From assembly GCA_001029635.1 (NCBI GenBank), contig CP011209.1, forward strand, positions 484,970-548,969: DNA of 64,000 nt. The letters are read 5' to 3'. A program made the position numbers and the translations under genes. This DNA comes from Candidatus Wolfebacteria bacterium GW2011_GWB1_47_1 (lineage in GTDB: Bacteria > Patescibacteriota > Minisyncoccia > UBA6257 > UBA9933). Within the stretch, counting starts at the first letter, position 1, and each line of letters starts with the position of its first letter. Below the pieces are notes generated by a model. The model had not been told where the DNA came from. It searched no databases and was given only the letters and a program-made list of their open reading frames with translations. Of the stretch, positions 5,529 through 50,282 are shown in pieces.

Positions 5529-5560
5529 ATTGTCATTCCCGCGGAGGCGGGAATGACAAT
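5529..5560. repeat. Perfect 14-bp-arm palindrome attgtcattcccgc-ggag-gcgggaatgacaat (REP-like unit, copy 1)
   Basis: Perfect inverted repeat immediately after the stop at 5520. The core GTCATTCCCGCG recurs at 49945 and, diverged, inside tsaD at 39798-39868. Confidence 0.7.
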
Positions 5561-5613
5561 ATCATTTTAAATAGATTCCTCAGTCGTCTGACAGATGGAA
5601 ATGACAAAAGATA

Positions 5614-7512
5614 ATGAATAATAAAGAAGTCTCAATTTTTGCAAAAACAAATTTTCGCAACCAAAGCGTTAATTTTGGCATCAAGTCAGCTGATCGGCTT
5701 CGTCATATGTATGTCGTCGGCAAGAGCGGTACTGGTAAGACGACCATGATGAAGAATCTGATGATCAATGACATCAAGAATGGCTTCGGTGTTGCCGTGC
5801 TCGATCCCCATGGAGAATTTGTCGAGGAATTGCTTAAGCATGTACCCGAGGATCGCATCAAAGATGTAATCTACGTCAATCCCGCCGATATTGATAACCC
5901 TGTCGGATTTAATCCACTCGAGCGTGTTGGAGAAGAACATGCCCACTTGGTCGCTTCGGCGGTTATGGGTGTATTCCAAAAGATCTGGGTTGATGCCTGG
6001 TCTGCGCGTATGGAGTATATTCTCAATAATACCCTGCTGGCCCTTTTGGAATATCCGGGCACGACGTTATTGAGTATTATGCGCATGCTTGCGGAAAAGG
6101 AATATCGCCAGAAGGTCGTTTCGAATCTTAAGGATCCGGTCATCAAATCATTCTGGGAGAACGAGTTCGCAAAATATACGGACAAGTTTATGACCGAGGC
6201 TATCGCTCCGCTCCAGAACAAGGTCGGACAATTTAGTTCCAATCCAGTCATCCGCAATATTATCGGACAACCAAAGTCTACCATCGACATGCGCAAGGCG
6301 ATGGATGAAGGAAAGATTCTCATATGCAACCTCTCACAAGGCCGACTCGGAGAAGATAACTCGGCATTGCTCGGAGCTATGATCATCACCAAGATCCAGT
6401 TGGCTGCCATGAGTCGTATTGATACTCCTGAAGCGGAACGTCGACCATTCTTTTTGTACATCGACGAGTTCCAAAACTTTTCCACAGGAGCGTTCACCAA
6501 AATATTTGCCGAAGCCCGTAAGTATGGACTCGGTCTTACGCTTGCCCATCAGTACGTTGAGCAGCTTAAAAAGGAGGAAGGTCTCGCCGAGGCGATCGTC
6601 GGAAACATTGGTACCTTGGTATTATTTCGTGTAGGGGCGATCGATGCCGTTTTCTTCGAAAAGGAATTTGAGCCTGAATTTACTCCAGCCGATATGATCG
6701 GCTTGTCAAACAGGCATATTTACCTTAAATTGTTGGTTGACGGTCAGGCGTCTCGGCCCTTTTCAGCAGAAACGTTGCCGCCATATCCAATTCCACAGCC
6801 GAATTTTGAGGATGTTATCATAGCAAATTCCCGCAGACTGTATTCGATGCCGAAACCGCTCGTGGATGAAATGATCGCCAAGGAATATATGGGTTCAGGC
6901 AAGACGTCTATGGAGGATAAGGTCATGCGAAGGGATGAGCGGTCATTGGGATCTACATTAATTCCTCGCGCGCAAGCACCGAGGTCCTTCGGCTCTGGTC
7001 AGGATAAATCCTTCGGCCACCAGCCGGCGGCTCAGAGTAGATCCTTCGGCTCTACTCAGGACAAGCCCCTTGGATCCGCTCAGGACAGGCAGGCATTTGG
7101 CAGAGACCAGGGTAGGTCAGCCGATTCTAGGCCTGTCGCTCATGCGCCTTCGTCGCGCCCTGTCGCGCCCATTAATCGATCTGATGATTCAGGTAAAAAA
7201 GCACCTTTTCATGATTCGACTGCCTTTGAGAAGGTTGTAACCGGTGCCCCTGTGCTCGTAAAACCTGAGGTGGATCGACCGAAACATGTTTATGAAAAGA
7301 AGCCGGTTAATATCGATGACCTAAAAAAAGCGATAGAGGAGACATTGCAAAAACGAAAAGAACCAGTTCTTACCGACAAGTATTTAGGTTCCGTTCAGGA
7401 CGGGCCGGTGCAGCGGCCAAGGAATATTGAGCGCGATACGCAACCCCCTCCTATCGCCTCTCATAGTGATGATAAAGCGGTTGCTGTGCCGGAGAAAGAA
7501 CAGCATACGTAA
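5614..7512 (+). CDS. P-loop ATPase of the TraG/TraD/VirD4 (type IV coupling protein) / FtsK-HerA superfamily, with a low-complexity C-terminal tail
   Basis: Walker A VVGKSGTGKTT, VLDPHGEF, Walker-B-like FFLYIDEFQNF. A conjugative-coupling-protein-like core over about 430 aa. C-terminal 200 aa are a disordered SFGS-QDK repeat tail (about 45-bp DNA period at 6960-7080). Confidence 0.55.
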   Translation: MNNKEVSIFAKTNFRNQSVNFGIKSADRLRHMYVVGKSGTGKTTMMKNLMINDIKNGFGVAVLDPHGEFVEELLKHVPEDRIKDVIYVNPADIDNPVGFNPLERVGEEHAHLVASAVMGVFQKIWVDAWSARMEYILNNTLLALLEYPGTTLLSIMRMLAEKEYRQKVVSNLKDPVIKSFWENEFAKYTDKFMTEAIAPLQNKVGQFSSNPVIRNIIGQPKSTIDMRKAMDEGKILICNLSQGRLGEDNSALLGAMIITKIQLAAMSRIDTPEAERRPFFLYIDEFQNFSTGAFTKIFAEARKYGLGLTLAHQYVEQLKKEEGLAEAIVGNIGTLVLFRVGAIDAVFFEKEFEPEFTPADMIGLSNRHIYLKLLVDGQASRPFSAETLPPYPIPQPNFEDVIIANSRRLYSMPKPLVDEMIAKEYMGSGKTSMEDKVMRRDERSLGSTLIPRAQAPRSFGSGQDKSFGHQPAAQSRSFGSTQDKPLGSAQDRQAFGRDQGRSADSRPVAHAPSSRPVAPINRSDDSGKKAPFHDSTAFEKVVTGAPVLVKPEVDRPKHVYEKKPVNIDDLKKAIEETLQKRKEPVLTDKYLGSVQDGPVQRPRNIERDTQPPPIASHSDDKAVAVPEKEQHT

Positions 7513-7558
7513 TTATTAATAAAAATAACTTAGTAAGGAGGGTGATCAATTTTGTAAA

Positions 7559-8158
7559 TTGATAACTCCGTTCGCAAACAAAATTGGCATGTTAGATATA
7601 AACGATCTTGAAAAAGGAAGTTCTATTATTATGGACGGTGACCCGTTCAGCGTACTTGAAATTTCTCATCAGCACGTCGGACGAGGAGGTTCGTCTGTAC
7701 AAACAAAATTGAAGAATTTGCGTACCGGACAGGTGCTATCGCGCAACTTTAAGCCGGCTGACGAATTCGAAGAGGCAGAAGTCGAGGAGCTGAAGTCAAA
7801 ATACCTCTACGCGACCAAAGGGGAATTTTGGTTTTCCGAACAGGCTAATCCCGGTAAACGATTTAGCTTGACTGAAGATATTGTGGGTGATCAAAAGGAT
7901 TATCTTAAAGCAGATATGGAAGTTATTGCTCTGATCTTCAATGAGAAGATCTTTGGTGTACGGTTGCCGATCAAGATGGAATACGTAGTTACCGAGGCCC
8001 CTCCCGCAATCAAGGGTAATACTGCCCAAGGTGGAACAAAGGTTGTTGTTATTGAATCGGGCGCGAAGGTCAACGTGCCGATGTTTATTAATGAGGGTGA
8101 TAGTATCCGCGTAAACACGCAGACCGGCGAATACGGCGAGCGTGTAGAAAAAGCATAA
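7559..8158 (+). CDS. efp: Elongation factor P
   Basis: MLDINDLEKG...GRGGSSVQTKLKNLRTG matches the EF-P KOW-like N-domain and the rest aligns to EF-P. Start uncertain: TTG 7559 lies 17 nt after the RBS taaggaggg, ATG 7589 has no RBS. Confidence 0.85.
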   Translation: MITPFANKIGMLDINDLEKGSSIIMDGDPFSVLEISHQHVGRGGSSVQTKLKNLRTGQVLSRNFKPADEFEEAEVEELKSKYLYATKGEFWFSEQANPGKRFSLTEDIVGDQKDYLKADMEVIALIFNEKIFGVRLPIKMEYVVTEAPPAIKGNTAQGGTKVVVIESGAKVNVPMFINEGDSIRVNTQTGEYGERVEKA

Positions 8159-8171
8159 TCACCATATATCC

Positions 8172-8792
8172 ATGCAAGCACTCATAGCCAGTACCTGGTT
8201 CACTTTCGTGTTTACGTGGTTTACTCCTGCGGTACTTTTTGTCGTTGCGGTTACTGCGTGTATCGCATATTACCGACCGCTGTCTGATGTTCGTCGTACG
8301 CGAATCTACACATCGCTTGCTATTGGTGTCGTGGTGTTTCGATTATTTGCCGCCGGATTAAAAACGGGTTTGCAATATTATACCTGGACACTTACGGATG
8401 TTTCTAAATTCATGCTGCCGCCACACCAAAGCATCGGTGTCTTATTGCAGTACGTCTGGACACATTTTTGGCTCAATGCGGTGATCGCGATCGGGGCTGC
8501 CTTGCTGTTTTATATCGTTTTGCGATTGTTGCGTTCCCATAACGAACGGTATTTCGAAGAAGGGGAGGTTGAGCTCGGATTTTTAATGGCGCTTGTCGTT
8601 GGATGGCCGTATTTCGTCTTTTTTGTCCCATCCGTTTTTTTACTGGTTATCTTCCTGAGTATCATCCGAGGAGTATTTTTACATAAACCGTATACCACAC
8701 TCGGGGTGCCCTTTTTTCTCGGTGCCGTTATTGCGTATGGGGTAACCTCCTTTATAATGGACGCATATGGCTTGGTGCAGTTTTCCATCTGA
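8172..8792 (+). CDS. Polytopic membrane protein, possibly prepilin-peptidase (A24)-like
   Basis: Five to six predicted TM helices. EEGEVELGFLMALVVGWPYFV is weakly reminiscent of the GGGDVKLLAALGAWLG region of A24 peptidases. No N-terminal zinc-finger or methyltransferase part. Confidence 0.3.
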   Translation: MQALIASTWFTFVFTWFTPAVLFVVAVTACIAYYRPLSDVRRTRIYTSLAIGVVVFRLFAAGLKTGLQYYTWTLTDVSKFMLPPHQSIGVLLQYVWTHFWLNAVIAIGAALLFYIVLRLLRSHNERYFEEGEVELGFLMALVVGWPYFVFFVPSVFLLVIFLSIIRGVFLHKPYTTLGVPFFLGAVIAYGVTSFIMDAYGLVQFSI

Positions 8793-8832
8793 GTCTTGCA
8801 ATTTCGCTTTAGTCTGATAGGCTTTCGGTGTT

Positions 8833-9924
8833 ATGGAAACTCCTAGGCCAAAAGTATTCGTCATGATGTCGGGTGGCGTCGATTCGAGCGTCGCTGCTTT
8901 TTTGTTGCGTGAGCAAGGGTTGTATGACGTGGTTGGGGCATTTATCAAAGGCTACAACGTTGATGGGTGTCAGGATAGGGAGTCTGAGGATGCCCGCCGG
9001 GTTGCCGAGCATTTGGGTATCCCATTTTACGTCATTGATCTTGAAGAGGAATATAAGCAATTCGTTGTCGAGTATCTGGTCAACGGGTATCGCAACGGCA
9101 TTACGCCAAATCCGGATGTGATGTGTAATAAGGAGATCAAGTTTGGCGTGTTTCTGGAGAAGGCGCTTGCGCTGGGTGCCAATTTTGTAGCTACGGGGCA
9201 TTATGTAAGAATTTCAAATTTCAAATTTCAAATTTCTAATGAGGATACGAAGACCGTGTGTGCGTTGCAACAGGGGATTGATGATAACAAAGATCAAAGT
9301 TATTTTTTGTGGACGTTGCGACAGGGGCAGTTGAAACATTGCCTGTTTCCGATTGGCGCGTACACCAAGCCAGAGATTCGCGCCATCGCAACGAAGGCCG
9401 GATTATCTACCGCACAGAAGAAAGATTCTCAGGGAATCTGTTTTTTGGGGAACATATCGTTGCGTGAATTTTTGGAACAATATCTACCCAAGAAGCGCGG
9501 AGATATTATCACAGTTGACGGTAAGAAGGTCGGTGAGCATGATGGGGCCTGGTTCTACACTATCGGACAACGCCATGGTCTTGGTATTGGTGGCGGTCCG
9601 GCTTATTTTGTTGTTAAAAAAGATGTCCGTAATAATATCGTAACCGTGGCGCATACTGAAGGTTTGCTCGGACAGGCGATTGACCATATTGATCTTGTCG
9701 ATGTTAATTTTATGGGAATATATGCCGCGCAATGTCCGGAATCCATCCCGGTCATGGCACGGATCCGTTATCGTCAGGCATTGTTTTCGGCTGTTTTGAT
9801 CGCGGAAAAAAACGGAGTCTACCGATTACAGTTTGATGAGTTTCAGAAATTCATAGCACCTGGCCAGTCAGCCGTACTTTATGGTAATGATGGCGTTATG
9901 ATCGGAGGTGGGGTTATGGCATGA
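8833..9924 (+). CDS. mnmA: tRNA-specific 2-thiouridylase MnmA
   Basis: PP-loop MSGGVDSSVAA, CNKEIKFG, KDQSYFLW and ICFLG motifs. Contains an in-frame heptanucleotide tandem repeat (aatttca x4) at about 9207-9236. Confidence 0.9.
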   Translation: METPRPKVFVMMSGGVDSSVAAFLLREQGLYDVVGAFIKGYNVDGCQDRESEDARRVAEHLGIPFYVIDLEEEYKQFVVEYLVNGYRNGITPNPDVMCNKEIKFGVFLEKALALGANFVATGHYVRISNFKFQISNEDTKTVCALQQGIDDNKDQSYFLWTLRQGQLKHCLFPIGAYTKPEIRAIATKAGLSTAQKKDSQGICFLGNISLREFLEQYLPKKRGDIITVDGKKVGEHDGAWFYTIGQRHGLGIGGGPAYFVVKKDVRNNIVTVAHTEGLLGQAIDHIDLVDVNFMGIYAAQCPESIPVMARIRYRQALFSAVLIAEKNGVYRLQFDEFQKFIAPGQSAVLYGNDGVMIGGGVMA

Positions 9925-10084
9925 TCGAAAGAGAGGGGTGGCTAGAGAATTTCTAAGCTGGAGTGCGCGGCGATCTTTGATTTATGCAATAGGGTGGCGC
10001 GGGGCTTCCTATTTATAACATAGCCATTAGGTGGTACCATAAAAATGTATATAAAGGTCGCATTATTTTAGAAAAATAAATTAT

Positions 10085-10207
10085 ATGATGGGATATTATG
10101 GTATGGGTAGTGGCATGTTCTTTTTTGGCTGGATCATTTATGTGTTGGTATTGATCTTGCTTGTGCTTGGGATTGTCGCTTTGTGGAAATATATCAACAA
10201 GAAGTAA
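10085..10207 (+). CDS. Micro-ORF, 40-aa single-TM protein (MMGYYGMGSGMFFFGWIIYVLVLILLVLGIVALWKYINKK)
   Basis: Clean ATG...TAA frame with a hydrophobic core, followed by a terminator. Its 3' 43 bp are duplicated at 11134-11176. Confidence 0.4.
   Translation: MMGYYGMGSGMFFFGWIIYVLVLILLVLGIVALWKYINKK
10121..10163. repeat. 43-bp direct repeat, left copy (ttttttggctggatcatttatgtgttggtattgatcttgcttg)
   Basis: Identical 43-mer at 11134-11176. The two copies bracket the terminator-promoter-HExxH gene-terminator cassette. Confidence 0.85.
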
Positions 10208-10220
10208 TGTGCTTACAGTG

Positions 10221-10251
10221 CAAAAACCGCCTTTATACAGGCGGTTTTTGC
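10221..10251 (+). terminator. Rho-independent terminator (aaaaccgcctttatacaggcggttttt)
   Basis: Hairpin plus T-run after the micro-ORF. Confidence 0.7.
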
Positions 10252-10284
10252 ATAGCAGTGGCAATTTCCTTCCAACGGTAAGGT

Positions 10285-10354
10285 TGACAACTTTGTATAT
10301 ATATGTTATATATATTATAGAAACTTTAACCACTATAAAGAGGAGGAGGCATTT
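10285..10354 (+). promoter_or_regulatory. Strong sigma-70-like promoter (TTGACA, 17 nt, TATATA) plus RBS aagaggaggagg for the HExxH gene
   Basis: ggTTGACAactttgtatatatatgtTATATAtattatag... followed by AAGAGGAGGAGG 8 nt before ATG 10355. Confidence 0.55.
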
Positions 10355-11110: not shown

Positions 11111-11112
11111 TC

Positions 11113-11141
11113 ACAGGGGTTAGCCCCTGTGTTTTTTTTGG
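11113..11141 (+). terminator. Rho-independent terminator (cacaggggttagcccctgtgtttttttt)
   Basis: Hairpin caggggt/tagc/cccctg plus an 8-T run. The T-run merges into the right direct-repeat copy. Confidence 0.7.
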
Positions 11142-11176
11142 CTGGATCATTTATGTGTTGGTATTGATCTTGCTTG
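11134..11176. repeat. 43-bp direct repeat, right copy. A start-less remnant of the micro-ORF 3' half.
   Basis: Perfect match to 10121-10163. In-frame continuation has no start codon and a stop upstream. Confidence 0.85.
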
Positions 11177-11324
11177 AATTAAAGGGGTCAGGTACCTTTA
11201 ATTTATCAGAAAATAAGCTTCCATTCGCAAGGCTTATTTTTATGGCTGGCGCTATGGGGCGATGTTGAAACCTTTTTAAACAAAAAAGCGACCAATGATG
11301 GCCGCCTCATGTAATGAAGAAAAG

Positions 11325-11795
11325 CTATAGTGCTGTTCCGTCGGGATTGAGGACTTCGTTGCGAAATGATTTCGGCGAGTGCTTTGGAGGGTCGGGTGTA
11401 AGTATTCCGCAACTTCGAGCGGATTTAAATGCAGTTTCACCTAACCACCAGCTGATAGTTGCCATCATAATGCAGATGATTGCTCCGAGCCAGACAGATT
11501 GCATCGGCCCAGGATCGAGGTTTGCCGCCAACGTAAGAACGATGGCAATAGCACCACTTACCATTTGCCCAGTCTGTTCAAAGTCAATATCATTCTTGGC
11601 TTGCCAAGAAGGATTTGCTTTGAGCAGGTAGTTACTTAGCGTTCTTTTGCTATAGAGCAGGTAGACGATCAGTAGGATGCTCGCGGGGATCTTGGCAAAG
11701 ATGCCGAGCCAAGGAAGGAGCAATAAAAAGACGATTGCTACCGTGAAACTCCACCCAGAGACGTGGTACAGATCTTCGAAGTAAACCTCTTTCAT
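11325..11795 (-). CDS. Hypothetical integral membrane protein
   Basis: 156-aa ORF on the minus strand with 4 predicted TM helices. No better-supported overlapping gene. The C-terminal 30 aa may be read-through. Confidence 0.45.
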   Translation of the reverse strand: MKEVYFEDLYHVSGWSFTVAIVFLLLLPWLGIFAKIPASILLIVYLLYSKRTLSNYLLKANPSWQAKNDIDFEQTGQMVSGAIAIVLTLAANLDPGPMQSVWLGAIICIMMATISWWLGETAFKSARSCGILTPDPPKHSPKSFRNEVLNPDGTAL

Positions 11796-11945
11796 AAAAG
11801 CCCTCTTATCTAATGTATTTAGTTTCTAATAAATCTGAATATACAATGCATTCTTTAGAAGCATTTGTAAAGGTTTGCTGGCAGTCATGGATTCGGACCC
11901 CGAGTGTTTTAAGGAATAGGCTGAATAGGGTATACTAAAGGCATT

Positions 11946-14123: not shown

Positions 14124-14128
14124 TTTTT

Positions 14129-14158
14129 AAAAGCCACTTTTACAAAAGTGGCTTTTTG
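14129..14158 (+). terminator. Rho-independent terminator (aaagccacttttacaaaagtggcttttt)
   Basis: Hairpin plus T-run right after the copB stop. Lies inside the ORF-track tyrS start, so tyrS must start downstream. Confidence 0.7.
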
Positions 14159-14173
14159 TATAATAATACAGGT

Positions 14174-15445: not shown

Positions 15446-15454
15446 TACAAAAGA

Positions 15455-15524: not shown

Positions 15525-15597
15525 GGGCCTGTAGTCTAGTGGTAGAACACGGCATTCGCATTGCTGAGACGCGAGTTCGATTCTCGCCAGGTCCACC
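15525..15597 (+). tRNA. tRNA-Ala (anticodon CGC)
   Basis: Folded by hand. Acceptor GGGCCUG/CAGGUCC with the G3:U70 Ala identity pair, D-arm, anticodon stem CGGCA/UGCUG, loop UUCGCAU, T-arm GCGAG-UUCGAUU-CUCGC. Confidence 0.8.
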
Positions 15598-18086: not shown

Positions 18087-18662
18087 ATGGAGCGTCGCGT
18101 ATTTATCATACATGGATGGGGTGCCGCCCCCGAGCGGGAGTGGTTCCCGTGGCTACGCGAGCAGCTTGAACATCACAATCTTGATGTCATCATTCCCGCG
18201 ATGCCTCATACGGAGCACCCTGTGATCGAAGAATGGGTTGCGATGCTGCGTACCGTTGCGGGAGCGCTTCGTCCTACGGATATCTTTGTCGGACATAGCG
18301 TCGGGTGTCAGGCCATCATGCGTTTTTTTGAACAAGAGAATGTATCCTCCGTTGCTGGGTTTATTTGTGTTGCCGGATGGTTTACCTTGCGAGGTGTTGA
18401 AACGGGAGAGGAGTGGGCGATTGCCAAGCCGTGGCTTGATACGCCGATCGATCTTGCGATGGTTAAACGCACTGCTGGTTCGATTACCGCAATCTTTTCC
18501 GAATCTGATCCGTATGTTGATCTTGCTATTAATCGAGATATGTTCGAGCAGCAACTGGGTGCACGGATTATCATCGAACATGATAAGGGGCATTTTAGCG
18601 AGGATAATGGCATCTATGAATTGCCAATCGTTCGGGATACTATTTTAACACTGATACAGTAA
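18087..18662 (+). CDS. Alpha/beta-hydrolase, RBBP9/YdeN-like serine hydrolase
   Basis: IIHGWGAAPEREWFPWL and nucleophile elbow VGHSVGC. About 190 aa, typical for this family. Confidence 0.65.
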   Translation: MERRVFIIHGWGAAPEREWFPWLREQLEHHNLDVIIPAMPHTEHPVIEEWVAMLRTVAGALRPTDIFVGHSVGCQAIMRFFEQENVSSVAGFICVAGWFTLRGVETGEEWAIAKPWLDTPIDLAMVKRTAGSITAIFSESDPYVDLAINRDMFEQQLGARIIIEHDKGHFSEDNGIYELPIVRDTILTLIQ

Positions 18663-20617: not shown

Positions 20618-21438
20618 TGATTATGAAAGATTTTTCTAAAGACATATTACATACCATAGAGGAGCGGGACATTGCGCCGTTGCCACGATGGATCTTTTTG
20701 ATGCGCCAAACCGCTTTGCTTGGCGGCTTTGTACTCTCGGTGTTAATCGGCGGAGTTTCTGTTTCCGTCATCTTGTTTGCATTAGGAGACATCGACCCGG
20801 GAGCGGAACGTATGATACGTATGCATCCCGGACCATTCTTGATTACGTATTTGCCGTATGTGTGGGTTTTAACTATGATCGCGTTTGGTATTATTGCGTA
20901 TTACGACATGCGCAGCATTAAAGGAGCGTATCGCTACCGCGCTGTCACAATCCTTAGTGCAAGCATTGTCGCGAGTATTATTGTCGGTGGCGTATTGCAT
21001 ACTGTTGGAGCGGGGCGTATTGCCGAGCGGCGATTTGCCGATGTAGTGCCGCAGTATCAAGCGTTTGAAACGCGCAAAATGCATCTTTGGATGCGTCCGG
21101 AGGATGGCATGCTTGCAGGCGTGATCGTCTCTGGATCGGCGACATCGACCCTTGTGTTGGAAGATTTTTCGGGAATACGATGGACTGTTGATGTTTCCGA
21201 TGCGGTGCAGCGAGGATTGATCTTAGGAGACTTTGGAGAGCGCGTGCGTGTGGCTGGTTCTCTTACTGGACCCGCGGTATTTCATGCGACCGATATATTC
21301 CCGTGGACCCGGCGTGGCTCTGTAATAAATCGAGAGCAAGGTATGATACGAGACGAAGTTTTTTCACGCCGATTTCCGGATGAATCTGGGCAACAAGGAA
21401 TGATGCTGCGTGAAAGAAATTTGCATCTTGCCCCGTAA
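20617..21438 (+). CDS. Putative anti-sigma factor / membrane protein, start overlaps the sigma gene stop (ATGA)
   Basis: Translationally coupled to the ECF sigma. Two to three TM helices after a short cytoplasmic N-terminus, the usual anti-sigma layout. Confidence 0.5.
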   Translation: MIMKDFSKDILHTIEERDIAPLPRWIFLMRQTALLGGFVLSVLIGGVSVSVILFALGDIDPGAERMIRMHPGPFLITYLPYVWVLTMIAFGIIAYYDMRSIKGAYRYRAVTILSASIVASIIVGGVLHTVGAGRIAERRFADVVPQYQAFETRKMHLWMRPEDGMLAGVIVSGSATSTLVLEDFSGIRWTVDVSDAVQRGLILGDFGERVRVAGSLTGPAVFHATDIFPWTRRGSVINREQGMIRDEVFSRRFPDESGQQGMMLRERNLHLAP

Positions 21439-28920: not shown

Positions 28921-29156
28921 TTGTGCCCCCGCTAGGTGCCCGCTTCGCTGCACTGCGTTCCGCTTGGGGGCAGGGCGCGCAGAAGAATAATGCGCGCCCT
29001 GCATTCCGTCGCGTTGCACGCTCTCCGTCGGCTGACGGATCGCTAGCAACGACCCAAGTCACAGCTCAATCGGACTGTGCCTTCGGCGTCCGATTCCTAG
29101 GGGTAAATCATAAAACACCCCGTAAGGAGTGTTTTATGATTTGTGCCCCCGCTAGG
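28921..29156. repeat. GC-rich multi-hairpin segment bracketed by 16-bp direct repeats (ttgtgcccccgctagg at 28921-28936 and 29141-29156). Candidate ncRNA or mobile-element remnant.
   Basis: Sharp GC rise versus flanks. Hairpins cagggcgcgca/tgcgcgccctg (28967-29003), cgtc-ggct-gacg, aatcggac/gtccgatt with an internal gccTTCGgc, and a roughly 28-bp stem 29090-29166 (cgattcctaggggtaaatcataaaacac / gtgttttatgatttgtgcccccgctaggaatcg). Confidence 0.5.
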
Positions 29157-29278
29157 AATCGGACCTAGATTGGGAGATTAGAAGTCTCCAGTTCTATCCA
29201 TTGAACTACAGGGGCGGTCAGGTACATTTACTTTTGCAACTATTTCAGTATACTAAGAAAGCAATAAACTGCAACAAA

Positions 29279-29349
29279 CGGAGAGTAGTATAGTGGTAGT
29301 ATGTATGCTTTGGGAGCATATGGTCCGGGTTCGATTCCCGGCTCTCCGA
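29279..29349 (+). tRNA. tRNA-Pro (anticodon UGG)
   Basis: Acceptor CGGAGAG/CUCUCCG, anticodon stem UAUGC/GCAUA, loop UUUGGGA with G37, T-arm CCGGG-UUCGAUU-CCCGG. Confidence 0.75.
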
Positions 29350-29463
29350 CTAAGATAATACACAATCAATAACATATAACCAACAACAGGGTATTAGGCG
29401 GGGGGGGAAGTATTGATTCTGATTGGCAATCTGTGTATACTTGAAAAGCAAATTTGGAAAGCC

Positions 29464-29538
29464 GCCGCGGTAGCTCAGCGGTAGAGCGTTGCCCTGAAGA
29501 GGCAAGCGTCGGGGGTTCAACTCCCTCCCGCGGCACCA
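29464..29538 (+). tRNA. tRNA-Phe (anticodon GAA), CCA encoded
   Basis: Acceptor GCCGCGG/CCGCGGC, D-arm GCUC-AGCGGUA-GAGC, anticodon stem UUGCC/GGCAA, loop CUGAAGA, T-arm GGGGG-UUCAACU-CCCUC, 3' ACCA. Confidence 0.85.
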
Positions 29539-31158: not shown

Positions 31159-31233
31159 GGTGCCCATAGTTCAGTGGTAGAACGTCGGTTTGTGGTACCG
31201 AAGGTCGAGGGTTCGATACCCTCTGGGCACCCA
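31159..31233 (+). tRNA. tRNA-His (anticodon GUG) with an encoded G-1
   Basis: Extra 5' G pairing with the discriminator C, acceptor GUGCCCA/UGGGCAC, D-arm GUUC-AGUGGUA-GAAC, anticodon stem UCGGU/ACCGA, loop UUGUGGU, T-arm GAGGG-UUCGAUA-CCCUC. Confidence 0.85.
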
Positions 31234-39562: not shown

Positions 39563-40714
39563 ATGTCTACGGAGAAGAAAGAACGGGTGAATATTCTATC
39601 GATCGAAACGAGCTGTGACGAAACGGCGCTTTCTTTTGTTACGGCAAGCGGGGGATTGGAAAAGCCGACATTTACGGTTCATGGCGACGTGGTCGCTTCG
39701 CAGATCAAATTGCATCAGCCATATGGAGGGGTTGTTCCGGCACTCGCAAAGCGAGCGCATTTGGAGAACTTGCCGCTATTGTTTGCTCAAGTTGTTCGAG
39801 GGGGTGTCACCCCGGCGGAGGCCGGGGTCCAGGAGGGTTTAGATTCCGGCCTCCGCCGGAATGACAACAGTGAGATATCGGCGCAAGAAGTTGAGCAGTT
39901 TATGGAGCAATTGGACTTTATCACGGTGACTGTTGGTCCCGGATTAGAGCCTGCATTGTGGGCGGGTATCGAGTTTGCAAAGCAGCTTGCGGAGAAGCAT
40001 AGTAAGCCGCTTATCGGAACAAACCATTTGGAAGGTCATTTGTATAGTATCCTTGTCTCTACGAAGCAATACGATGTTGCATCGATCTTTCCCGCAATCG
40101 CATTGATTGTAAGTGGAGGGCACACGTTGTTGCTCAAGATGGATGATTTGACGACATTTAAGAAGATTGGCGAGACCGTAGATGATGCCGTTGGCGAAGC
40201 GTTCGATAAGGTCGCGCGCATGATCGACTTGCCGTATCCGGGCGGACCGGAAATAGAACGATTAGCAAAGGAGGGTAACGCGATGGCGATCGATTTCCCG
40301 CGTCCGATGATCGGGCATAAAAATTATAACTTCAGTTTTTCAGGGTTAAAGACATCGGTATTGTATCATTTGCGTGACCTTGCAAAGGCGGGTAAGGAAA
40401 TCCCGAAGGCGGATGTCGCTGCAAGCTTTCAAAAAGCGGCTTCTGATGTGTTAATCAAAAAGACGTTGCGCGCTGCCGAAGAATTTGACGCCAAATCGAT
40501 CATGATCTCGGGCGGCGTGTCCGCGAACCGCACCTTGCGTGCATCGTTTGCCGATGCGATCGAAAAGAAATTCAAAGCGAAAAAGGATAAGCCGATCCTT
40601 ATTGTCAGTGAATTTTCTACCGACAATGCACTGATGATCGCGGCTTCGGGATACATCGATTATCTGAGAGGGAAGAAGTATAAGTTGGAGGCCAACGGTA
40701 ATCTTAATCTGTGA
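39563..40714 (+). CDS. tsaD: tRNA N6-adenosine threonylcarbamoyltransferase TsaD (Kae1/Gcp family) with an about 25-aa palindromic insertion
   Basis: LSIETSCDETALSFV, HLEGHLYS and GGVSAN motifs. Insertion GGVTPAEAGVQEGLDSGLRRND between the first His region and the VTVGPGL block. Confidence 0.85.
   Translation: MSTEKKERVNILSIETSCDETALSFVTASGGLEKPTFTVHGDVVASQIKLHQPYGGVVPALAKRAHLENLPLLFAQVVRGGVTPAEAGVQEGLDSGLRRNDNSEISAQEVEQFMEQLDFITVTVGPGLEPALWAGIEFAKQLAEKHSKPLIGTNHLEGHLYSILVSTKQYDVASIFPAIALIVSGGHTLLLKMDDLTTFKKIGETVDDAVGEAFDKVARMIDLPYPGGPEIERLAKEGNAMAIDFPRPMIGHKNYNFSFSGLKTSVLYHLRDLAKAGKEIPKADVAASFQKAASDVLIKKTLRAAEEFDAKSIMISGGVSANRTLRASFADAIEKKFKAKKDKPILIVSEFSTDNALMIAASGYIDYLRGKKYKLEANGNLNL
39798..39868. 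repeat. REP-like palindromic unit inserted in-frame inside tsaD
   Basis: gtcaccccggcggaggccgg ... ccggcctccgccggaatgacaa. The arms are 14-bp perfect inverted repeats and share the GTCAYYCCSGCGGAGGCSGGRATGACAA consensus with 5529-5560. Local GC spike. Confidence 0.6.
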
Positions 40715-42869: not shown

Positions 42870-42905
42870 CTCGTAAAAGCCGTCGAATAACGGTTATTTG
42901 TTTTT

Positions 42906-45900
42906 ATGGCAAAACAGCTTCCAACAAAAGTTTTTTCAAAACACCCCGGCTCGTTCATCGAGCAGCCGTATCTTGCCACACTCCAGGCCGAATCTTGGGA
43001 CTGGTTTGTGAAGAAAGGTCTGCGCGAACTCTTTGACGAGATTTCTCCGATCAAGGATTACACCGGCAATGAGGTAGAACTGCACTTTCTTGATTATCAC
43101 TTCGATGAACCGCGTTACGACGAGGAAACAACCCGCTTGAAGGGATTGACCTACGAAGCCCCGTTGCGCGTCAATGTGAAACTCATCAATAAGGTCTTGA
43201 ACGACGAAAAGGAACAGGAAGTATACCTGGGAGATTTCCCGATCATGACTAGTCGCCACACGTTTATCATGAACGGAGTTGAGCGCGTTATGGTTTCTCA
43301 ATTGATCCGCTCTAGCGGCGTGTACTTTAGCGCAAGCATGTTGCGGGGAAAGAAATTGTTTGGTGCGAAGATTATCCCGAACCGTGGAAGCTGGTTAGAA
43401 TTCGAAACCGAGATCGACGGCTTTATTGGCGTAAAGATTGATCGACATCGTAAGGCTCCGGTCACCGAACTGCTGCGCGTATTTGCCAACCAGGTAAATA
43501 TTACGTTAACCAACGAGAAGATCCTCGAAATGTTTGCCGACATCGACAAGGGTGCCGTGAAGCATATCGAAGCGACTTTAAAGAAGGATGCGGCAAAAAC
43601 CGCCTCTGAATCATATGTAGAAATTTACAAGCGGTTGCGACCGGGCGATTTGGCGACTCCGGAAAACGCACAGAGCTTGATTGACTCCATGTTTCAGCGC
43701 GACGACCGTTATAGCTTGTCCCGCGTAGGACGCTTTAAGGTGAATCAGCGCTTGGAATTGAAGTCTAAAGAATCGACACTGCTCGACCTCGAGGATGTCG
43801 TGCAGATTGTACGCGAGCTTATTCGCTTGAACAACGACAAGCACGCGGAGCCTGATGATATCGATCACTTGGGCAACCGACGCATCCGCGCCGTCGGTGA
43901 ATTGTTGCAGGGCCGTCTGTATGTTGGTTTTGCGCGCATGCGCCGCGCCATCCAGGACAAGATTTCGACCGCAGAAGCGGATGTTGTCTTAACTCCGGTG
44001 CAGCTTATCAACGGACGACCGCTTGTCGCCGTTATGAAGGAATTTTTGACATCTTCCCAGCTGTCGCAATTTATGGACCAGGTAAACCCGTTGGCTGAGA
44101 TCGAGCACAAGCGTCGTTTGTCTTTGCTTGGACCGGGTGGATTAACCCGTGAGCACGCAGGCTTCGAAGTCCGCGATGTTCACCCGTCCCACTATGGCCG
44201 CATCTGTCCGATTGAAACTCCTGAAGGACAATCCATCGGTTTAGTTAACCACCTCTCCAACTATTCTCGCATCAATGAATTTGGGTTTTTGGAGACGCCG
44301 TATGCAAAGGTAAAAAATGGCAAAGTTACCAACGAGATCGAATGGATGAACGCCTTGGAAGAAACCAAGTACAAGATCGCACACGGCGGAAACCGTCTTG
44401 ATGCGAATAATAGAATTGTAGACGACGTCGTCGGCGCACGTATCAAGGGCGAGCCGCGCACCTGTGATCGCGAGGAAGTAGACTTCATGGACGTTTCAAA
44501 CGACCAAACCGTCGCCGCTGCGACCGCACTTATTCCATTTTTGGAACATAACCCGGCAAACCGCGCGCTCATGGGAGCGAATATGCAACGCCAGGCCGTA
44601 CCGCCGGTACGTCCGCAGGCTCCGCTTGTCGGAACCGGCATCGAAGACAAAATTGCTCGCGATTCCGCGCGCGCCGTTGTCGCACCGGAAGATGGCGAGA
44701 TCATAGAAGTCGATTCGAACCATATCGTATTGAAGACCAAGAGCGAATTGAAGCATTTTGAATTGACCAAGTTCCAGCGTTCCAATAAATATACAAACAT
44801 TTCCCAACACCCAATCATTAACAAAGGTGACAAGGTTAAGAAGGGTGATGTACTCGCCGATGGCCCATCCATGGATCATGGAACATTGGCACTCGGACAG
44901 AATATGCGAGTTGCATTTATGTCCTGGGAAGGGCGCAACTTCGAGGACGCCATTATTTTGTCTGATCGTGTTGTGAAGAATGATATCTTCTCATCCATCC
45001 AGATCAAGGACTTTGTGTGCGATGTTCGCGACACAAAGCTTGGACCGGAAATTACCACCAATGACATTCCGAACGTGTCGGAAGAGAAGTTAAGAAATCT
45101 TGATGAGGAGGGAATCATCCGCATCGGAGCCGAAGTGCGCGCAGGAGATATCCTAGTCGGAAAGGTTTCCCCGAAAGGCGAGACTGAATTGACCGCAGAA
45201 GAAAAGCTGCTCCGTGCTATCTTTGAAGAAAAGGCGCGCGACGTAAAGGATACGTCTTTGTCCGTCCCGCACGGTGAATCCGGACGGGTTATCGGCATCA
45301 AAATCTTCTCCCGTGATCGCGGCGACAAACTTGAGCCGGGTGTTATTAAGCGCATTCAGATCGAACTTGCGGAACTTCGCAAGGTTCGCGCCGGAGATAA
45401 GCTTGCCGGACGTTATGGAAACAAGGGTGTTATCTCGAAGATCTGCCCGGCAGAAGACATGCCGTACTTGGCAGACGGAACCCCGGTTGATGTTATCTTG
45501 AACCCATTGGGCGTGCCGTCCCGCATGAACTTGGGACAGGTATTGGAAGTACATCTTGGTCTTGCGGCAAATAAGCTTGGCTATCGCGCAGTGACGCCGG
45601 TATTCGCGAGTGCAACCGAAGATGATGTACGAGCTGAATTGAAGAAAGCCGGTTATCCGGAAGATGGAAAATTGGAATTGTATGATGGACGAACGGGCGA
45701 GAAATTTGTCAGCCCGGTGACCGTCGGATTTATGTATATGATCAAGCTTGACCACATGGTCGAAGACAAGATCCATATGCGCGCGACCGGTCCGTACTCA
45801 TTAATCACACAACAACCGCTCGGAGGAAAGGCGCAGTTCGGCGGACAACGTTTTGGAGAAATGGAAGTGTGGGCCTTGGAAGGATACGGCGCAGCGTATA

Positions 45901-46124
45901 CCTTGCAAGAAATGCTCACAATCAAATCCGATGACGTATTCGGACGTGCCGCTACCTATGAAAGCATTATTCGAGGTGAGAAGATTAAGAGTCCAAACAT
46001 CCCGTCCGCATTCAACGTGCTTGTGAACGAAATTAAATCGCTCGGTATCTCTGTTGAGAAGGAGGAGGTCGAACCGGAAGAAGGCGAGGAATTACACGCA
46101 ACCGCCTCGCGAATCGAAGAATAA
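42906..46124 (+). CDS. rpoB: DNA-directed RNA polymerase subunit beta
   Basis: Canonical rpoB blocks throughout (GNRRIR..., [33 protein letters not shown]). 1072 aa, short but complete. Confidence 0.95.
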
Positions 46125-46127
46125 GCG

Positions 46128-46250
46128 ATAACGAATAGGGGTCGGCAAACTGCTGCGTTACGGGGCCCCGTTGGCTTGGTTGAAGTGCTACTTGCACATC
46201 TTCCTCGCCAACTTCCCCCGTACTTTGCATTTCATCCAACCCTATCCGTT
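46128..46250 (+). ncRNA. Structured intergenic element, copy D (rpoB-rpoC spacer). Diverged copy with compensatory stem changes.
   Basis: ttacggggcccc...gtgc-tactt-gcac...cttcccccgta. Both conserved stems are kept by paired substitutions relative to A-C. Outer stem aacgaataggggtcggcaaactgc / gcatttcatccaaccctatccgtt. Confidence 0.5.
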
Positions 46251-46287
46251 CTCGGCATTTTCGAAATCTATTTATAAATTCTACCCT

Positions 46288-49200
46288 ATGAATTTCAACG
46301 CCATTAAATTGAAAGTTGCCTCACCGGAAGAGATCCTAAAGTGGTCCCATGGTGAGATCACCAAACCGGAAACGATCAACTACCGGACCCAGCGTCCGGA
46401 AAAGGATGGTCTGTTTTCCGAGCGTATCTTCGGACCGACGAAAGATTATGAGTGCTATTGCGGAAAGTACCGACGCGTTCGCTATAAAGGACTTACCTGT
46501 GATAAGTGTGGTGTGGAAGTGACTCATTCCAGCGTTCGCCGAGAGCGCATGGGGCATATTTCGCTTGCCGCTCCCGTCGCGCATATTTGGTTCTTGAAGG
46601 TTGTTCCGTCCCGCTTGTCCCTCTTTTTGGACATCCCGGTACAAAAGCTCGAAAAGGTTGTGTACTACGCAGCCTATGTCATCACGCACGTCAACGACGA
46701 CGCTCGCAAGCGCGTCTTGAAGGAGCTCGAAGACGAAGTGAAGATGAAGAAGAAGGAGTTTGAGGATAACAAGGATAAGGCAAAACTTGTTGAAGAAAAG
46801 GCAGAACAGATCAAGAAGCAGTTAAAGTCCTTAAAGGAAGGGCAGATTCTTGCCGAAGCAGAATACTTTGAATTGTCCCGCAAATACGGCGATGTGCTCG
46901 AAGCACTTTCTGGTGCGGGAGCCGTACGCCAGTTGCTCGAAAAGATCGATCTGAAGAAGTTTCTTGTTCAAACCGAAAAGGAATTGGAGGAGACTGGAGA
47001 TGAGGGTCAGAAAAAGAAGTTGCTTATGCGCTTGCGCTTGATCCATGCCTTCACTCGACACCAGATGCGTCCCGAGTGGATGGTCATGACTCAATTGCCG
47101 GTATTGCCGCCTGAAATCCGACCGATGGTTGCGCTCGACGGAGGCCGTTATGCGACTTCCGACTTGAATGATTTATATCGTCGTGTTATCAACCGCAACA
47201 ATCGCTTGAAGAAGCTCATGGAGTTGCATGCACCGGAAATCATTGTGGTCAACGAAAAGCGCATGCTTCAGGAAGCCGTCGACGCATTGATCGACAACGC
47301 TAGCCGTGGAGGCAGTGCTGTGCAATTGTCCGCCCAGAAGCGGCCGTTGCGCTCGCTCGCTGATATTTTGAAGGGTAAGCAGGGACGCTTCCGACAGAAC
47401 TTGCTCGGAAAGCGCGTAGACTATTCCGGACGTTCCGTTATTATCGTCGGACCGGAATTGCCGTTGAACTGCTGTGGCTTGCCGAAGAAGATGGCCTTGG
47501 AACTCTTTAAGCCGTTTGTCATTAGCCGCATTATTAGCGACGGACTTGCACATACCATCAAGAATGCGACTCGATTGATTGAGCAGGCACCTGCAGAAGT
47601 GTGGGCGATCCTCGAAGAGGTCATTAAAGATAAGAAGGTATTATTGAACCGTGCGCCGACATTGCACCGCTTGGGTATCCAGGCCTTTAAGCCGGTATTG
47701 CACGAAGAACTTGCGATCAAGATTCCGCCGATGGTATGTTCTGCTTTTAACGCAGACTTCGATGGAGACCAAATGGCTGTTCACTTGCCGTTGTCCGATG
47801 AAGCTCAGAAGGAAGCGACCGAGCTTATGCTCGCAAGTCGTAATATTTTGAAGCCGGCGGATGGAGCCCCTGTGGCATCACCGTCGCTCGACATCGTGTT
47901 GGGCTGCTACTATCTGACGAGCATCATCGATGATGCGAAGGGAGTGGGACATATATTTTCATCCGCTGATGAAGCGAAGATTGCTTTTGAAGCTGGTTAT
48001 GTTGCCATTAACGCACCGGTCAAGGTATTGATGGGTAAAGGAAATATCGTAGAGACTAGCGTAGGACGACTCATGTTTAATGAGGCATTACCGGAGAACT
48101 TCGGATTTGTAAATGCCGTCATGAATAAGAAGGGATTGCAGAAAGTCGTGTCTACCGTTACCAGTGAATATGGTATCGATAACACATGGACTGTACTCGA
48201 TTCCATTAAGGAACTTGGATTCAAGTATGCGACATTGTCCGCCACTACGTGGGCGATGGCTGATCTGATTATCCCGACTGAAAAGAAGGGTATTCTTGCT
48301 CAAGCCGAGAAGGAGGTTGATGTTATTGAAAACCAGTATGAAGAAGGGTTCCTGACCACTGAAGAGCGCCGTGAGCGTGTTATCGAGATTTGGGAAGACA
48401 CCACAAAAAAGTTGTCCGAGGTTGTCCCGAACGCCTTGAAAGCTGCAGGACCTTCGAACTCCGTGTTCTCGATTGTGGATTCCGGATCTCGCGGATCATG
48501 GGCACAGCCGATGCAGATGGTTGGTATGAAAGGTTTGGTGCAGAACCCGCAAGGGGATATCATTGAGCTCCCGATCAAGTCCTCCTACAAGGAAGGGCTG
48601 AACGTGCTTGAATTCTTCATCAACTCGCACGGTGCGCGTAAAGGTTTGACCGATACCGCACTTAAGACCGCAGAAGCAGGATACCTGACGCGTAAACTAG
48701 TCGACGTGTCCCAGAACCTGATCATTCGTGAGGAGGATTGTAAGACCAGTGAAGGAGTCGATATGTATCGTTCCGACGGGGATGAATATGGATATGCATT
48801 CGGAACCCGCTTGTATAGCCGAACCGTCCTTGAGGATGTAAAAGTTGGCAACAAAGTGATCGTGAAGGCGGGCGATAGCGTTACCCGCGAAGCAGCCGAA
48901 GCGATTAATAATGAACCAAAAATTGAGAAGGTTCGATTGCGTTCTCCGTTACGTTGTAAAACGCTCTACGGCGTTTGCTCGAAGTGCTATGGTTACGACT
49001 TGGGTCGCGGCGAAATGATCAAGAGTGGCGAAGCCATCGGTGTCATCGCCGCACAGTCCATCGGAGAGCCGGGAACCCAGCTCACGCTCCGCACCTTCCA
49101 CAAGGGAGGTATTGCGGGGGTTGATATCACGCACGGTTTGCCGCGCGTCCAGGAAATCTTCGAGTGTCGCGTGCCAAAAGGTAAAGCGATCCTCGCTGAA

Positions 49201-49869
49201 GATGACGGTGTGATTACCGAGATCGAAGACAAGGAAGCCTTGAAGGCGATCCGCCTCACAACCACCAAGGGTAAAAAGGCTAAGACCATTGAATATCTGG
49301 TCCCGCGCAGTATTCGTCTCTTTGTAAGGCAGGGGGATGAGGTTACCAAGGGAACCCAGTTGTGCGAAGGAAGTCTTGATTTAAAGGAATTGTTCGAATA
49401 CCAGGGTATTGAAGCGGTAGAACGCTACGCGGTGAACGAAATCCAGCGCATCTATGTACCGGAAGGTAACACGATTAACGACAAACATATTGAGATTATC
49501 GTGAAACAGATGTTCTCACGCGTCATGATTAAGGAACCGGGAGAGACTGATTTCGTCACCGGAGAGGTGATCGAAAAGTCCCGTTTCCTGGAGATTAATC
49601 GCGAGGTGCGCAAGGCAGGCAAAGCGCCAGCAAAGGCGAAACAGCTTCTCTTGGGTATCGCACGGGTATCGCTTTCCACCGAAAGCTTCCTGTCCAGTGC
49701 GTCCTTCCAGGAAACTAACCGTGTACTCGTCGCCGCTGCTACGGAGGGTAAGGAGGACCGATTGCGAGGACTTAAGGAAAACGTCATCATCGGTAAGTTG
49801 ATTCCTGCGGGAACCGGCTACCATTTGACGGGAACCGAAGAGTTTCTTGAAGAGGAAGTACTTGAATAA
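46288..49869 (+). CDS. rpoC: DNA-directed RNA polymerase subunit beta'
   Basis: Zinc-binding [27 protein letters not shown] catalytic loop, trigger loop and bridge helix regions. True start ATG 46288 (MNFNAIKLK). The 46171 start would read through element D. Confidence 0.95.
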
Positions 49870-49904
49870 TTACTAATTTGTAATTACTAATTACTAAAAA
49901 AATA

Positions 49905-49938
49905 CAAAAGCCGTCGGCTTTGGGCCGGCGGCTTTTGT
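49905..49938 (+). terminator. Rho-independent terminator after rpoC (aaagccgtcggctttgggccggcggcttttgtg)
   Basis: Imperfect GC stem plus T-run. Followed by a REP-like fragment tgtcattcccgcg at 49945-49957. Confidence 0.6.
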
Positions 49939-50282
49939 GTATTCTGTCATTCCCGCGCAGGTCGGAATCCACTTCTATTTTTTAAATAATATTTCCTGTA
50001 CTTTTTCCAGAAAAAGTACCAAAAAGCTTGCGAGCGAAATAAAAAAGCGGAATGCTCTTGAAAATTCCTTACGAATCCGAGGGGTGCGCCCGTTTGCTAA
50101 CGGGACCCCGCACCTCGGATTCTGTGGGAATTTTTTGCGTTCATTCTGATCGCTTTTTTACAGCTCGCGAAGGAATGCGGGGAAACTTATACTCCTTTAT
50201 TCACTATCCTTTTTGCATGCGCAAATAGTAGAAATAAAAAAAGACGGGCGCTGGGGAGCGACCGTCGGGGTGGTACTTCGGA

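Follow-up and report, generated by a model that had tools for sequence, protein, structure and literature searches.

The stretch of DNA considered here, hereafter the window, comprises 64,000 nt of Candidatus Wolfebacteria, a bacterium of the candidate phyla radiation (CPR), and was taken from a genome of ~1 Mb. A short hairpin unit of the form TGTC-ATTCCSGC-loop-GCSGGAAT-CCA occurs in it at three sites: 5529–5560, downstream of the open reading frame (ORF) at 4138–5520; 39805–39866, within tsaD, the gene for a subunit of the t6A transferase; and 49945–49971, in the spacer between rpoC and rpsF. All three were located where a first-pass annotation of this DNA had placed them. Searching with the 23-mer core GTCATTCCCGCGGAGGCGGGAAT at up to three mismatches recovered three matches in the window, exactly these sites, with 0.00 expected from 100 shuffles, and the pattern ATTCC-N10-GGAAT gave three matches versus 0.20 by shuffling. 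A chance origin of the three sites is excluded.

The unit consists of a 4-nt tag, an 8-bp stem opening with A-T, a 4-nt G-rich loop and a 3-nt CCA-like tail, and occurs either singly or as tags-outward (HH) dimers of 60–80 bp. The first site (5529–5560, no strand assigned) is a perfect palindrome, ATTGTCATTCCCGC-GGAG-GCGGGAATGACAAT, whose TGTC tag can be read on either strand, and was classed as a repetitive extragenic palindromic (REP) unit of the CGTC-1 type. It begins 8 nt past the stop codon (5518–5520) of ORF 4138–5520, bearing out the earlier description of a perfect hairpin with 14-bp arms behind the upstream gene, and it lies upstream of the VirD4-like ORF at 5614–7512. Its RNA fold has an energy of −26 kcal/mol (z = −7.1), and a simple scan scored it as terminator-like, with 14 pairs followed by ATCATTTTAA. 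In front of the VirD4-like ORF, a candidate degenerate partner unit with a weak stem can be read on the reverse strand (5575–5609; GATTCC-TCAGTCGTCTGACAGAT-GGAAATGACAA). It ends in GATTCC...GGAATGACAA, as do the tsaD dimer and the dimer at 11330–11403 of the related locus L003 (Wolfebacteria RIFOXYB1_FULL_54_12), and the junction ...TTTA/ATA-GATTCC is common to all three. Together with the first site, this partner would probably form a tags-outward dimer of ~80 bp.

The third site (49945–49971, forward strand) reads TGTC-ATTCCCGC-GCAG-GTCGGAAT-CCA, a degenerate unit in the orientation of the Neisseria NTS motif discussed below, with six Watson-Crick pairs and one G-T among the eight stem positions. 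It follows the rpoC terminator hairpin (~49902–49941) immediately on the 3′ side, where a recurrence of the core had indeed been noted before. A further role as 3′-end hairpins, either terminators or mRNA stabilisers, is probable for the two extragenic copies (5529 and 49945). A fourth match at 18189 (12-mer, one mismatch), in the coding sequence of a serine-hydrolase ORF, lacks a partner arm and was taken as chance.

The host gene of the intragenic copy (39563–40714, forward strand) encodes a 383-aa protein that matches Pfam TsaD with E = 1.2e-73 and TsaD sequences in the PDB with E = 6e-73. The dimer at 39805–39866 runs TGTC-ACCCCGGC-GGAG-GCCGGGGT-CCA, then GGAGGGTT, then TAG-ATTCCGGC-CTCC-GCCGGAAT-GACA. 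Unit A (39805–39831, forward strand) has its tag at 39805–39808, its stem, ACCCCGGC/GCCGGGGT, at 39809–39816 and 39821–39828, a GGAG loop and a CCA tail at 39829–39831, and is translated as VTPAEAGVQ. Unit B (39840–39866) is inverted, on the reverse strand, with the tail TAG at 39840–39842, the stem ATTCCGGC/GCCGGAAT at 39843–39850 and 39855–39862, a CTCC loop and the tag GACA at 39863–39866; its translation is DSGLRRND. The arms of the dimer, 21 nt long, are 90% complementary, and the whole folds at −47 kcal/mol (z = −4.9). The extra segment of the gene extends from 39803 to 39904 on the forward strand (aa 81–114) and comprises the REP dimer plus a 13-aa tail, NSEISAQEVEQFM; the sequences spanning its junctions are VVRGGVTPAEAGVQEGLDSGLR and NDNSEISAQEVEQFMEQLDFITVTVGPGLEPALWAGIEFAK. 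It amounts to 30 codons absent from 353-aa alleles, rather than the ~25 residues first estimated, plus four codons (GLDS) that align with the native GMDP, and it contains no stop codon. The view of a REP-like palindromic unit with one location in frame within tsaD holds.

As for the protein, residues 77–114 of the window TsaD take the place of residues 65–71 of T. maritima TsaD, the extra segment itself being aligned there; the insert lies in the loop between helix alpha1 and strand beta3 (loop 1). An AlphaFold model built from a 116-sequence alignment has an overall predicted local distance difference test score (pLDDT) of 92.3, and Foldseek aligned it at TM 0.86–0.88 with the TsaD of solved TsaD-TsaB and TsaBDE complexes. 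The only low-confidence segment is residues 81–100, with a pLDDT of 51 for 81–90 and 48 for 91–100 and values below 50 at residues 86–96 only; residues 107–116, in the insert's tail, are modelled as a helix leading into a strand at 119–125. Since low confidence is confined to the insert within an otherwise confident TsaD fold, the model supports the proposal, already made at first pass, of a tolerated loop, here predicted to be disordered. The insert is thus in frame, in a functional gene and, in the predicted structure, compatible with the fold, as are the Rickettsia palindromic elements (RPEs) considered below.

To which family does the unit belong? CGTC-tagged REPs were described by Di Nocera, De Gregorio & Rocco (2013, BMC Genomics 14:522; PMC3733652) in a survey of more than 80 species from eight phyla that predates the CPR genomes. 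Their tag is CGTC, often TGTC, with CCTC as a further variant; the stem has 8–9 bp and opens with A-T pairs, the loop has 4–5 nt and the tail is mostly CCA. Families range from tens to thousands of units per genome, HH dimers predominate, and the copies lie mostly just downstream of ORFs. In the same survey, type CGTC-1 corresponds to Neisseria dRS3 and Rickettsia conorii RPE-6, and CGTC-4 to RPE-4.

The window units resemble CGTC-1 in tag, stem, loop, tail and HH arrangement. First, TGTC is found at 5531–5534, 39805–39808, 39863–39866 (reverse strand) and 49945–49948, and the metagenome copies are mostly CGTC-tagged, with G after GAC in 101 of 130 copies among the matches listed. Second, the stems ATTCCCGC/GCGGGAAT, ATTCCGGC/GCCGGAAT and ACCCCGGC/GCCGGGGT enclose loops GGAG, CTCC and GCAG; exceptions are the C-G at position 2 of unit A and two imperfect pairs at the third site. 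Third, the tail reads CCA at 39829–39831 and 49969–49971 and CTA at 39840–39842 (reverse strand), the exception being the first site, which has a mirrored GAC tag in its place. Fourth, HH dimers are present in tsaD (39805–39866) and in L003 (11330–11403), and also in the loci L049, L061, L086 and L103. The copy number is three sites (4–5 units) in the 64-kb window and up to six ATTCC-type units in 21 kb of L003. Apart from the exceptions in unit A and at the first site, what differs from the known CGTC-1 families is the Wolfebacteria host and the tsaD target.

A second literature describes the same kind of hairpin from the side of an enzyme. Chenal et al. (2025, Nat Commun 16:2388; PMC11893778) broadened dRS3 into two motifs: the NTS, which is oriented and reads CGTCATTCCCGCGMAVGCGGGAATCYRG, and a degenerate one, the Ssn-related motif (SRM), spread across phyla. 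SsnA, a 94-aa single-domain GIY-YIG nuclease (cd10448), binds the hairpin as single-stranded DNA and cuts just upstream of it, and its gene is typically flanked by the motif (PMC11893778). The likeness to our units lies in the core, ATTCCC-N8-GGGAAT, and in the flanks, (C/T)GTCATTCC...GGAATCC(A/R), the window units being close to the NTS consensus. A cytosine also directly follows the palindrome at 49969 (GGAAT-C), at 39829 (GGGGT-C) and on the reverse strand of unit B (GGAAT-C). However, none of the three window sites fits the strict SRM pattern, the search for an ssnA homologue in the window was negative, and three sites in 64 kb are far below the copy density of pathogenic Neisseria; intragenic or in-frame copies, and Patescibacteria, are unmentioned in that paper. 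The misses are narrow, the cause being either mismatches in the stem or the G of the GGAG loop, and relatives do carry strict matches (L001 6915–6942, L003 20878–20906, and L007 3423–3450, the loop 1 insert of the TsaD allele P0020). On the features set out in PMC3733652, we file the units as CGTC-1 and, given the strict miss, not as SRM by the published pattern. On the evidence of their sequences, the units are the same kind of element as Neisseria dRS3/NTS, SRM and Rickettsia RPE-6.

Other classes of short hairpin repeats were compared as well. GTAG REPs/REPINs and BIMEs share with the unit the short extragenic hairpins, the inverted dimers, the 3′-untranslated positions and the recognition of a hairpin on single-stranded DNA. 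Yet they are defined by a GTAG tag and an IS200/IS605-type Y1 transposase (RAYT), and neither was seen here: the tag is TGTC, and no transposase was found among the 17 window ORFs scanned with Pfam. As in miniature inverted-repeat transposable elements, the two ends of the dimer are inverted copies of each other (TGTCAYYCC...GGAATGACA); no direct repeat was found consistently at its flanks.

Is the hairpin itself conserved? Among copies from related Wolfebacteria loci, the outer parts are constant while the inner stem is variable yet always complementary, giving TGTC-ATTCC...GGAAT-C(C/T)(A/G). Units were then selected by their outer flanks only, across all 2.0 Mb of fetched DNA, and all three free inner pairs were complementary in 101 of 114 distinct units, representing at least 10 stem types; with shuffled partners, the mean was 41.7 and the maximum 58. 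The hairpin is thus shown to be conserved through compensatory changes. The loops are G-rich and orientation-dependent (GGAG, GAAG, GAAA, GCAG).

In public sequence, the exact 23-mer of the first site, ATTCCCGCCTCCGCGGGAATGAC, is present in 23 viral (IMG/VR) contigs and in at least 120 GTDB genome stretches, spread over Patescibacteria groups, Proteobacteria, Rickettsiaceae, Planctomycetes, Chloroflexota, Nitrospirota, Cloacimonas, Aminicenantes and others. The exact 23-mer of unit B, ATTCCGGCCTCCGCCGGAATGAC, is likewise present in at least 120 metagenome stretches, and an inverted partner precedes it in 34 of 130 copies among the matches listed. The commonest such partner among these matches, GTCACCCCGGCGAAGGCCGGGGTCCAG, differs from unit A by one loop base (GAAG for GGAG), and one locus, L233, carries the exact sequence of unit A with a longer spacer. 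Given that unit B is widespread in exact form and unit A is one base off its usual partner, the tsaD insert is a copy of a widespread HH heterodimer. The earlier reading of it as a diverged duplicate of the first site therefore does not hold; the dimer joins two sequence types other than that of the first site. The absence of further copies, which the first-pass annotation had named as telling against itself, is not what we see, since the window and related Wolfebacteria loci hold further copies, as do hundreds of public contigs.

Some of these copies cluster. The orthologous rpoC-rpsF spacer of L003 (20600–21091) holds several hairpin units (20807, 20847, 20878); as a separate observation, five units of mixed type lie within 20700–20910, at the position orthologous to the third site, and resemble a BIME-like hotspot. 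An HH dimer also sits in the tsaD-ftsW spacer of L003 and L005. In L005 (5744–6816), the ftsW gene, 3′ of tsaD, is broken up into two ORFs; the gene is intact in L002 and L004, and is uncalled in the NCBI record behind L003 (11146–12566). In two Patescibacteria loci, a unit or dimer lies just upstream of ORF starts, of an atpD-like ORF in one (L061 4838–4933) and of a Sua5/TsaC-like ORF in the other (L063 1618–1640), and these copies appear to be 5′-untranslated rather than coding.

Among the tsaD alleles, relatives at 77–87% identity are mostly 345–362 aa long, and their loop 1 reads ...VDG-GMDP-EQLDF.... P0002 and P0003 (~80% identical) have the same dimer as the window allele, the nearest allele, P0004 (86% identical), is empty at loop 1, P0011 and P0020 have other versions (DSRLRGND..., RLHGND...), and P0029 (57% identical) carries an independent SRM-type insert. 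A neighbor-joining tree of 323 ungapped columns puts the filled alleles at three distinct positions, with the window allele nested among empty ones beside P0004; several gains, losses or recombination patches are therefore required. The proposal of a lineage-specific insertion stands in that most close relatives lack the insert, and fails in that ~80%-identical alleles have it while the nearest allele does not. Relatives with the same insert and no repeat, the other finding that had been named in advance as contrary, were not encountered: P0002 and P0003 have both the insert and the repeat DNA. Within the species, no presence/absence polymorphism was found, every cluster member spanning the site having the insert.

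No part of tsaD is better conserved in DNA sequence than the dimer. Between the window and L001/L005, identity is 96.7% over codons 81–100, versus 52–93% in other 20-codon windows and 75% overall. Third positions in codons 81–104 are 87.5% identical, compared with 33–62% in flanking gene segments and 22% in a 9-codon tail, and the stretch encoding the peptide tail after the dimer has 48–52% nucleotide identity.

A second loop of TsaD (loop 2, after HLYSxLVS) shows the same behavior. It holds a single CGTC unit in P0011 and P0017 and a longer version in P0018, and other relatives have repeat-derived peptides there, including GDTRYEIR, SNYEFKITN and KHEARNSK...FGFRNSDF. Across 116 Parcubacteria TsaD sequences, loop 1 spans 11–46 residues and loop 2 spans 8–36. 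Both loops (window aa 77–117 and 164–176) were also seen to hold peptides of non-CGTC repeats, namely ISNFQFPISN...NSKFQILN, KHEARNSKQKSFGFRNSDF, SKIKNQKSK and GDTRYEIR, which suggests that other palindromic repeat families insert there too. One such short repeat family occurs in the window itself: AATTACTAATTTGTAATTACTAAT (49868–49891) overlaps the rpoC stop codon and matches AATTACGAATTTAAAATTACTAAT (L007 3648–3671) at 21 of 24 positions, the latter being read in frame (NYEFKITN) in loop 2 of P0020 and P0013. Judged from the sequences and peptides, the two TsaD loops are recurrent insertion sites for the CGTC unit and other short repeats across Parcubacteria.

In-frame insertion is not confined to tsaD. 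The unit is open in five of six reading frames, the sixth containing TGA, and in-frame copies in other Patescibacteria genes jointly use all five open frames. They were found in the 3′-5′ exonuclease domain of PolA (L065), PrmC (L066), a SpoU methylase (L145), a Wzy_C protein (L045) and a DUF4012 protein (L049). Use of all five frames across genes argues for tolerated selfish DNA over a selected peptide. The opinion that in-frame palindrome insertions are rare is accordingly too strong: besides these CPR genes, they are documented in the same repeat superfamily (PMC3733652), in Rickettsia RPE-4/RPE-6, Opitutus and others, and intragenic CGTC and GTAG REPs, as single units and as dimers encoding 20–30 aa, are listed for PolA, Uvr proteins and tRNA enzymes. 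The best-known case is the RPEs (Ogata et al. 2000, Science 290:347, as relayed in PMC10969869 and PMC3733652), palindromes in frame within housekeeping genes that are said there to be translated as extra surface segments. As far as these accounts go, the tsaD insert is like them in being an in-frame palindromic repeat in a functional housekeeping gene, whereas the classic RPE-1 is 100–150 bp long with its own consensus, and the hosts are obligate intracellular alphaproteobacteria. The equivalence of RPE-6 and CGTC-1 is taken from PMC3733652; exact 23-mers of the first site were seen in Rickettsiaceae metagenome-assembled genomes.

How might such units move? Small GIY-YIG ORFs were seen next to the motif in L268, L161 and L048, an arrangement resembling that of ssnA. 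ORFs of ~85–135 aa matching Pfam GIY-YIG (PF01541) stand beside exact copies in L268, with copies on both sides, and in L161, and the one in L048 is 72 bp from an exact copy. Another is present as two ORF fragments in L260, that of L045 (Paceibacterota) lies 2.6 kb from its copy and has homologues that are common in Patescibacteria, and L153 also has a GIY-YIG ORF. NCBIfam gave no informative name for these small ORFs. We propose that the hairpin would form on single-stranded DNA and be recognised in trans by a small single-domain GIY-YIG (Ssn-type) nuclease, and that copies would be spread or homogenised by recombination at the single-strand level or by gene conversion. A pre-formed HH dimer may then have landed in, or recombined into, the alpha1-beta3 loop of TsaD, possibly targeted by microhomology, as the native GGN-ATG-GAY-CC resembles the CTG-GAT-TCC side of the element. 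The insert would be translated as a disordered loop. With five of six frames open, an insert of a multiple of three nucleotides in a tolerant surface loop survives selection.

Taken as a whole, namely a CGTC-tagged REP of type CGTC-1 in its TGTC variant, present as an HH dimer in a TsaD loop and spread via the proposed single-strand-level mechanism, this reading has in our estimate a probability of roughly 0.8. Several points weigh against it. The scan covers 64 kb of a ~1-Mb genome. The strict SRM pattern, HGTCWYN(0-2)YYVSBRHN(0-5)WNVSBRGN(0-2)RNCYNB, has 0 matches in the window (shuffle mean 0.15), and the first site, with GGAAT-G on both strands, lacks the post-palindrome cytosine needed for SsnA binding (PMC11893778). 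Neither the window nor the Wolfebacteria loci searched yielded a GIY-YIG/Ssn ORF, by regular expression and then by a hidden Markov model built from three of the ORFs found plus the E. coli YhbQ sequence. No nearly identical pair of filled and empty alleles was found, the nearest empty allele being 86% identical, so mobility is deduced from the phylogenetic pattern only. In alignments of filled with empty alleles, a target-site duplication is not evident and the insert boundaries are ambiguous, because the native GMDP codons (GGN-ATG-GAY-CC) can be aligned to unit B on its tail side. Finally, the high DNA identity of the insert could stem from recent recombination rather than from constraint.

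It is possible, although in our view somewhat unlikely, that the mover or creator of the unit was not an Ssn-type nuclease but an IS200/IS605-type (RAYT-like) tyrosine transposase, a REP-targeting IS110-type recombinase or homologous recombination between lineages, or that the unit is an immobile relic. Consistent with this, the window and the related loci searched yielded no Ssn gene, and CGTC REPs had no known dedicated enzyme in 2013 (PMC3733652). Furthermore, immediately before the insert the window allele has the residues LLFA in common with P0002/P0003, although the gene is otherwise nearer to P0004, which suggests a recombination patch. On the other hand, the tag is TGTC/CGTC and not GTAG, the Pfam scan of the window ORFs revealed no transposase, and GIY-YIG ORFs flank identical units elsewhere.

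An adaptive origin appears improbable. In that case, the insert would be a selected peptide module, for example a partner-binding loop specific to CPR bacteria, and not neutral selfish DNA. It is kept in 31 contigs of the species and in ~80%-identical alleles, its tail (aa 107–116) is modelled as a confident helix, and it sits at the end of helix alpha1, which takes part in the TsaD-TsaB interface of the E. coli and Salmonella structures. However, the nearest relatives do without it, and a disordered core is predicted for it. What is conserved is the DNA, third codon positions included, while the peptide tail diverges, and in other genes the unit is read in all five open frames.

Nor do we give much weight to an ordinary hypervariable TsaD loop whose likeness to the intergenic hairpins is coincidental or convergent. 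The lengths of both loops do vary widely across the 116 Parcubacteria sequences. Against coincidence, unit B recurs exactly in at least 120 unrelated metagenome stretches with unit A one base off its usual partner, the window has three matches where 0.00 are expected, and in either loop the long variants can mostly be recognised as peptides derived from repeats. A hypervariable loop and repeat insertion are in fact compatible, as the loop is variable because repeats land there; a hypervariable loop as the sole explanation is already contradicted.

Equally little speaks for the hairpin being an intervening sequence that is removed from the tsaD mRNA or protein. In its favor, the hairpin, within an essential gene, is very stable (−47 kcal/mol), and in one assembly the gene call for P0242 (KKU74385.1), a member of the 90% cluster of the window TsaD, has its start at MEQLDF, exactly behind the insert; a contig edge, a frameshift within the hairpin or the choice of the gene caller could be the cause. 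But every allele keeps a multiple-of-three length and is free of stop codons, a constraint that would be needless if the segment were excised, and neither intein or intron signatures nor an Rfam match was found at the insert. An assembly or chimera artefact can be dismissed: palindromes can cause misassembly in general and nothing specific points to it, whereas 31 contigs from several sources, one of them a 984,447-bp record, encode the identical 383-aa protein (P0241; Candidatus Wolfebacteria; accessions including AKM78280.1), and related inserts occur in independent JGI, ENA and Logan assemblies.

Other features of the window may be mentioned briefly. ORF 5614–7512 encodes a VirD4/TrwB/TraG-like coupling ATPase (Pfam TrwB_AAD_bind, T4SS-DNA_transf) amid housekeeping genes for SecD, SecF, EF-P and MnmA, and ORF 4138–5520 (460 aa) has no Pfam match. 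The rpoC-rpsF spacer (49870–51013) is ~1.15 kb long, whereas that of L010 measures 128 bp and that of L003 ~490 bp. Within it lie a long hairpin (~50068–50130), a GC-rich ORF-free stretch without an Rfam match (~50230–50400), and a reverse-strand ORF of 87 aa (50635–50898) that has a strong Shine-Dalgarno sequence and a terminator of its own (~50596–50622). Six tRNA genes, unrelated to the repeat, lie at 29144–29535 (three, clustered), 31160–31231, 15525–15595 and 55527–55611. At the gathering threshold, Rfam recognised only tRNAs in the window, and nothing credible was obtained for 49870–50660 at E ≤ 1.

The observation that started this analysis is confirmed, and the core of its earlier interpretation was essentially right. 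Both the element and the phenomenon of in-frame insertion are already known; no description of the CGTC/SRM element in Patescibacteria was found in the literature searched. What is new is the CPR host group, the tsaD target, the repeated insertion of several repeat families into two TsaD loops, and the striking conservation of hairpin DNA within coding sequence. A more far-reaching extension, which we offer tentatively and think rather doubtful as a whole, is that CGTC/SRM dimers and at least five other palindromic families might be an ongoing, general source of lineage-specific loop insertions in essential CPR proteins. They would be targeted repeatedly to the same loops, possibly through microhomology, would be kept near-invariant as DNA by hairpin machinery (Ssn-type nucleases or gene conversion), and would double as control points of recombination or transformation in core genes.

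The analysis links three literatures to one class of element: the classification of REPs, the protein-coding palindromes of Rickettsia and the Ssn nucleases described in 2025. It offers an explanation for some unexplained insertions in conserved CPR proteins and flags two loops of TsaD as permissive. For annotation, peptides such as DSRLRGND, VIPAEAGIQ, SFPRRRES and CHSRGGGN in CPR proteins are to be read as translated REP units. Lastly, near-invariant hairpin DNA in a diverging essential gene provides a natural test of DNA-level selection versus repeated copying.

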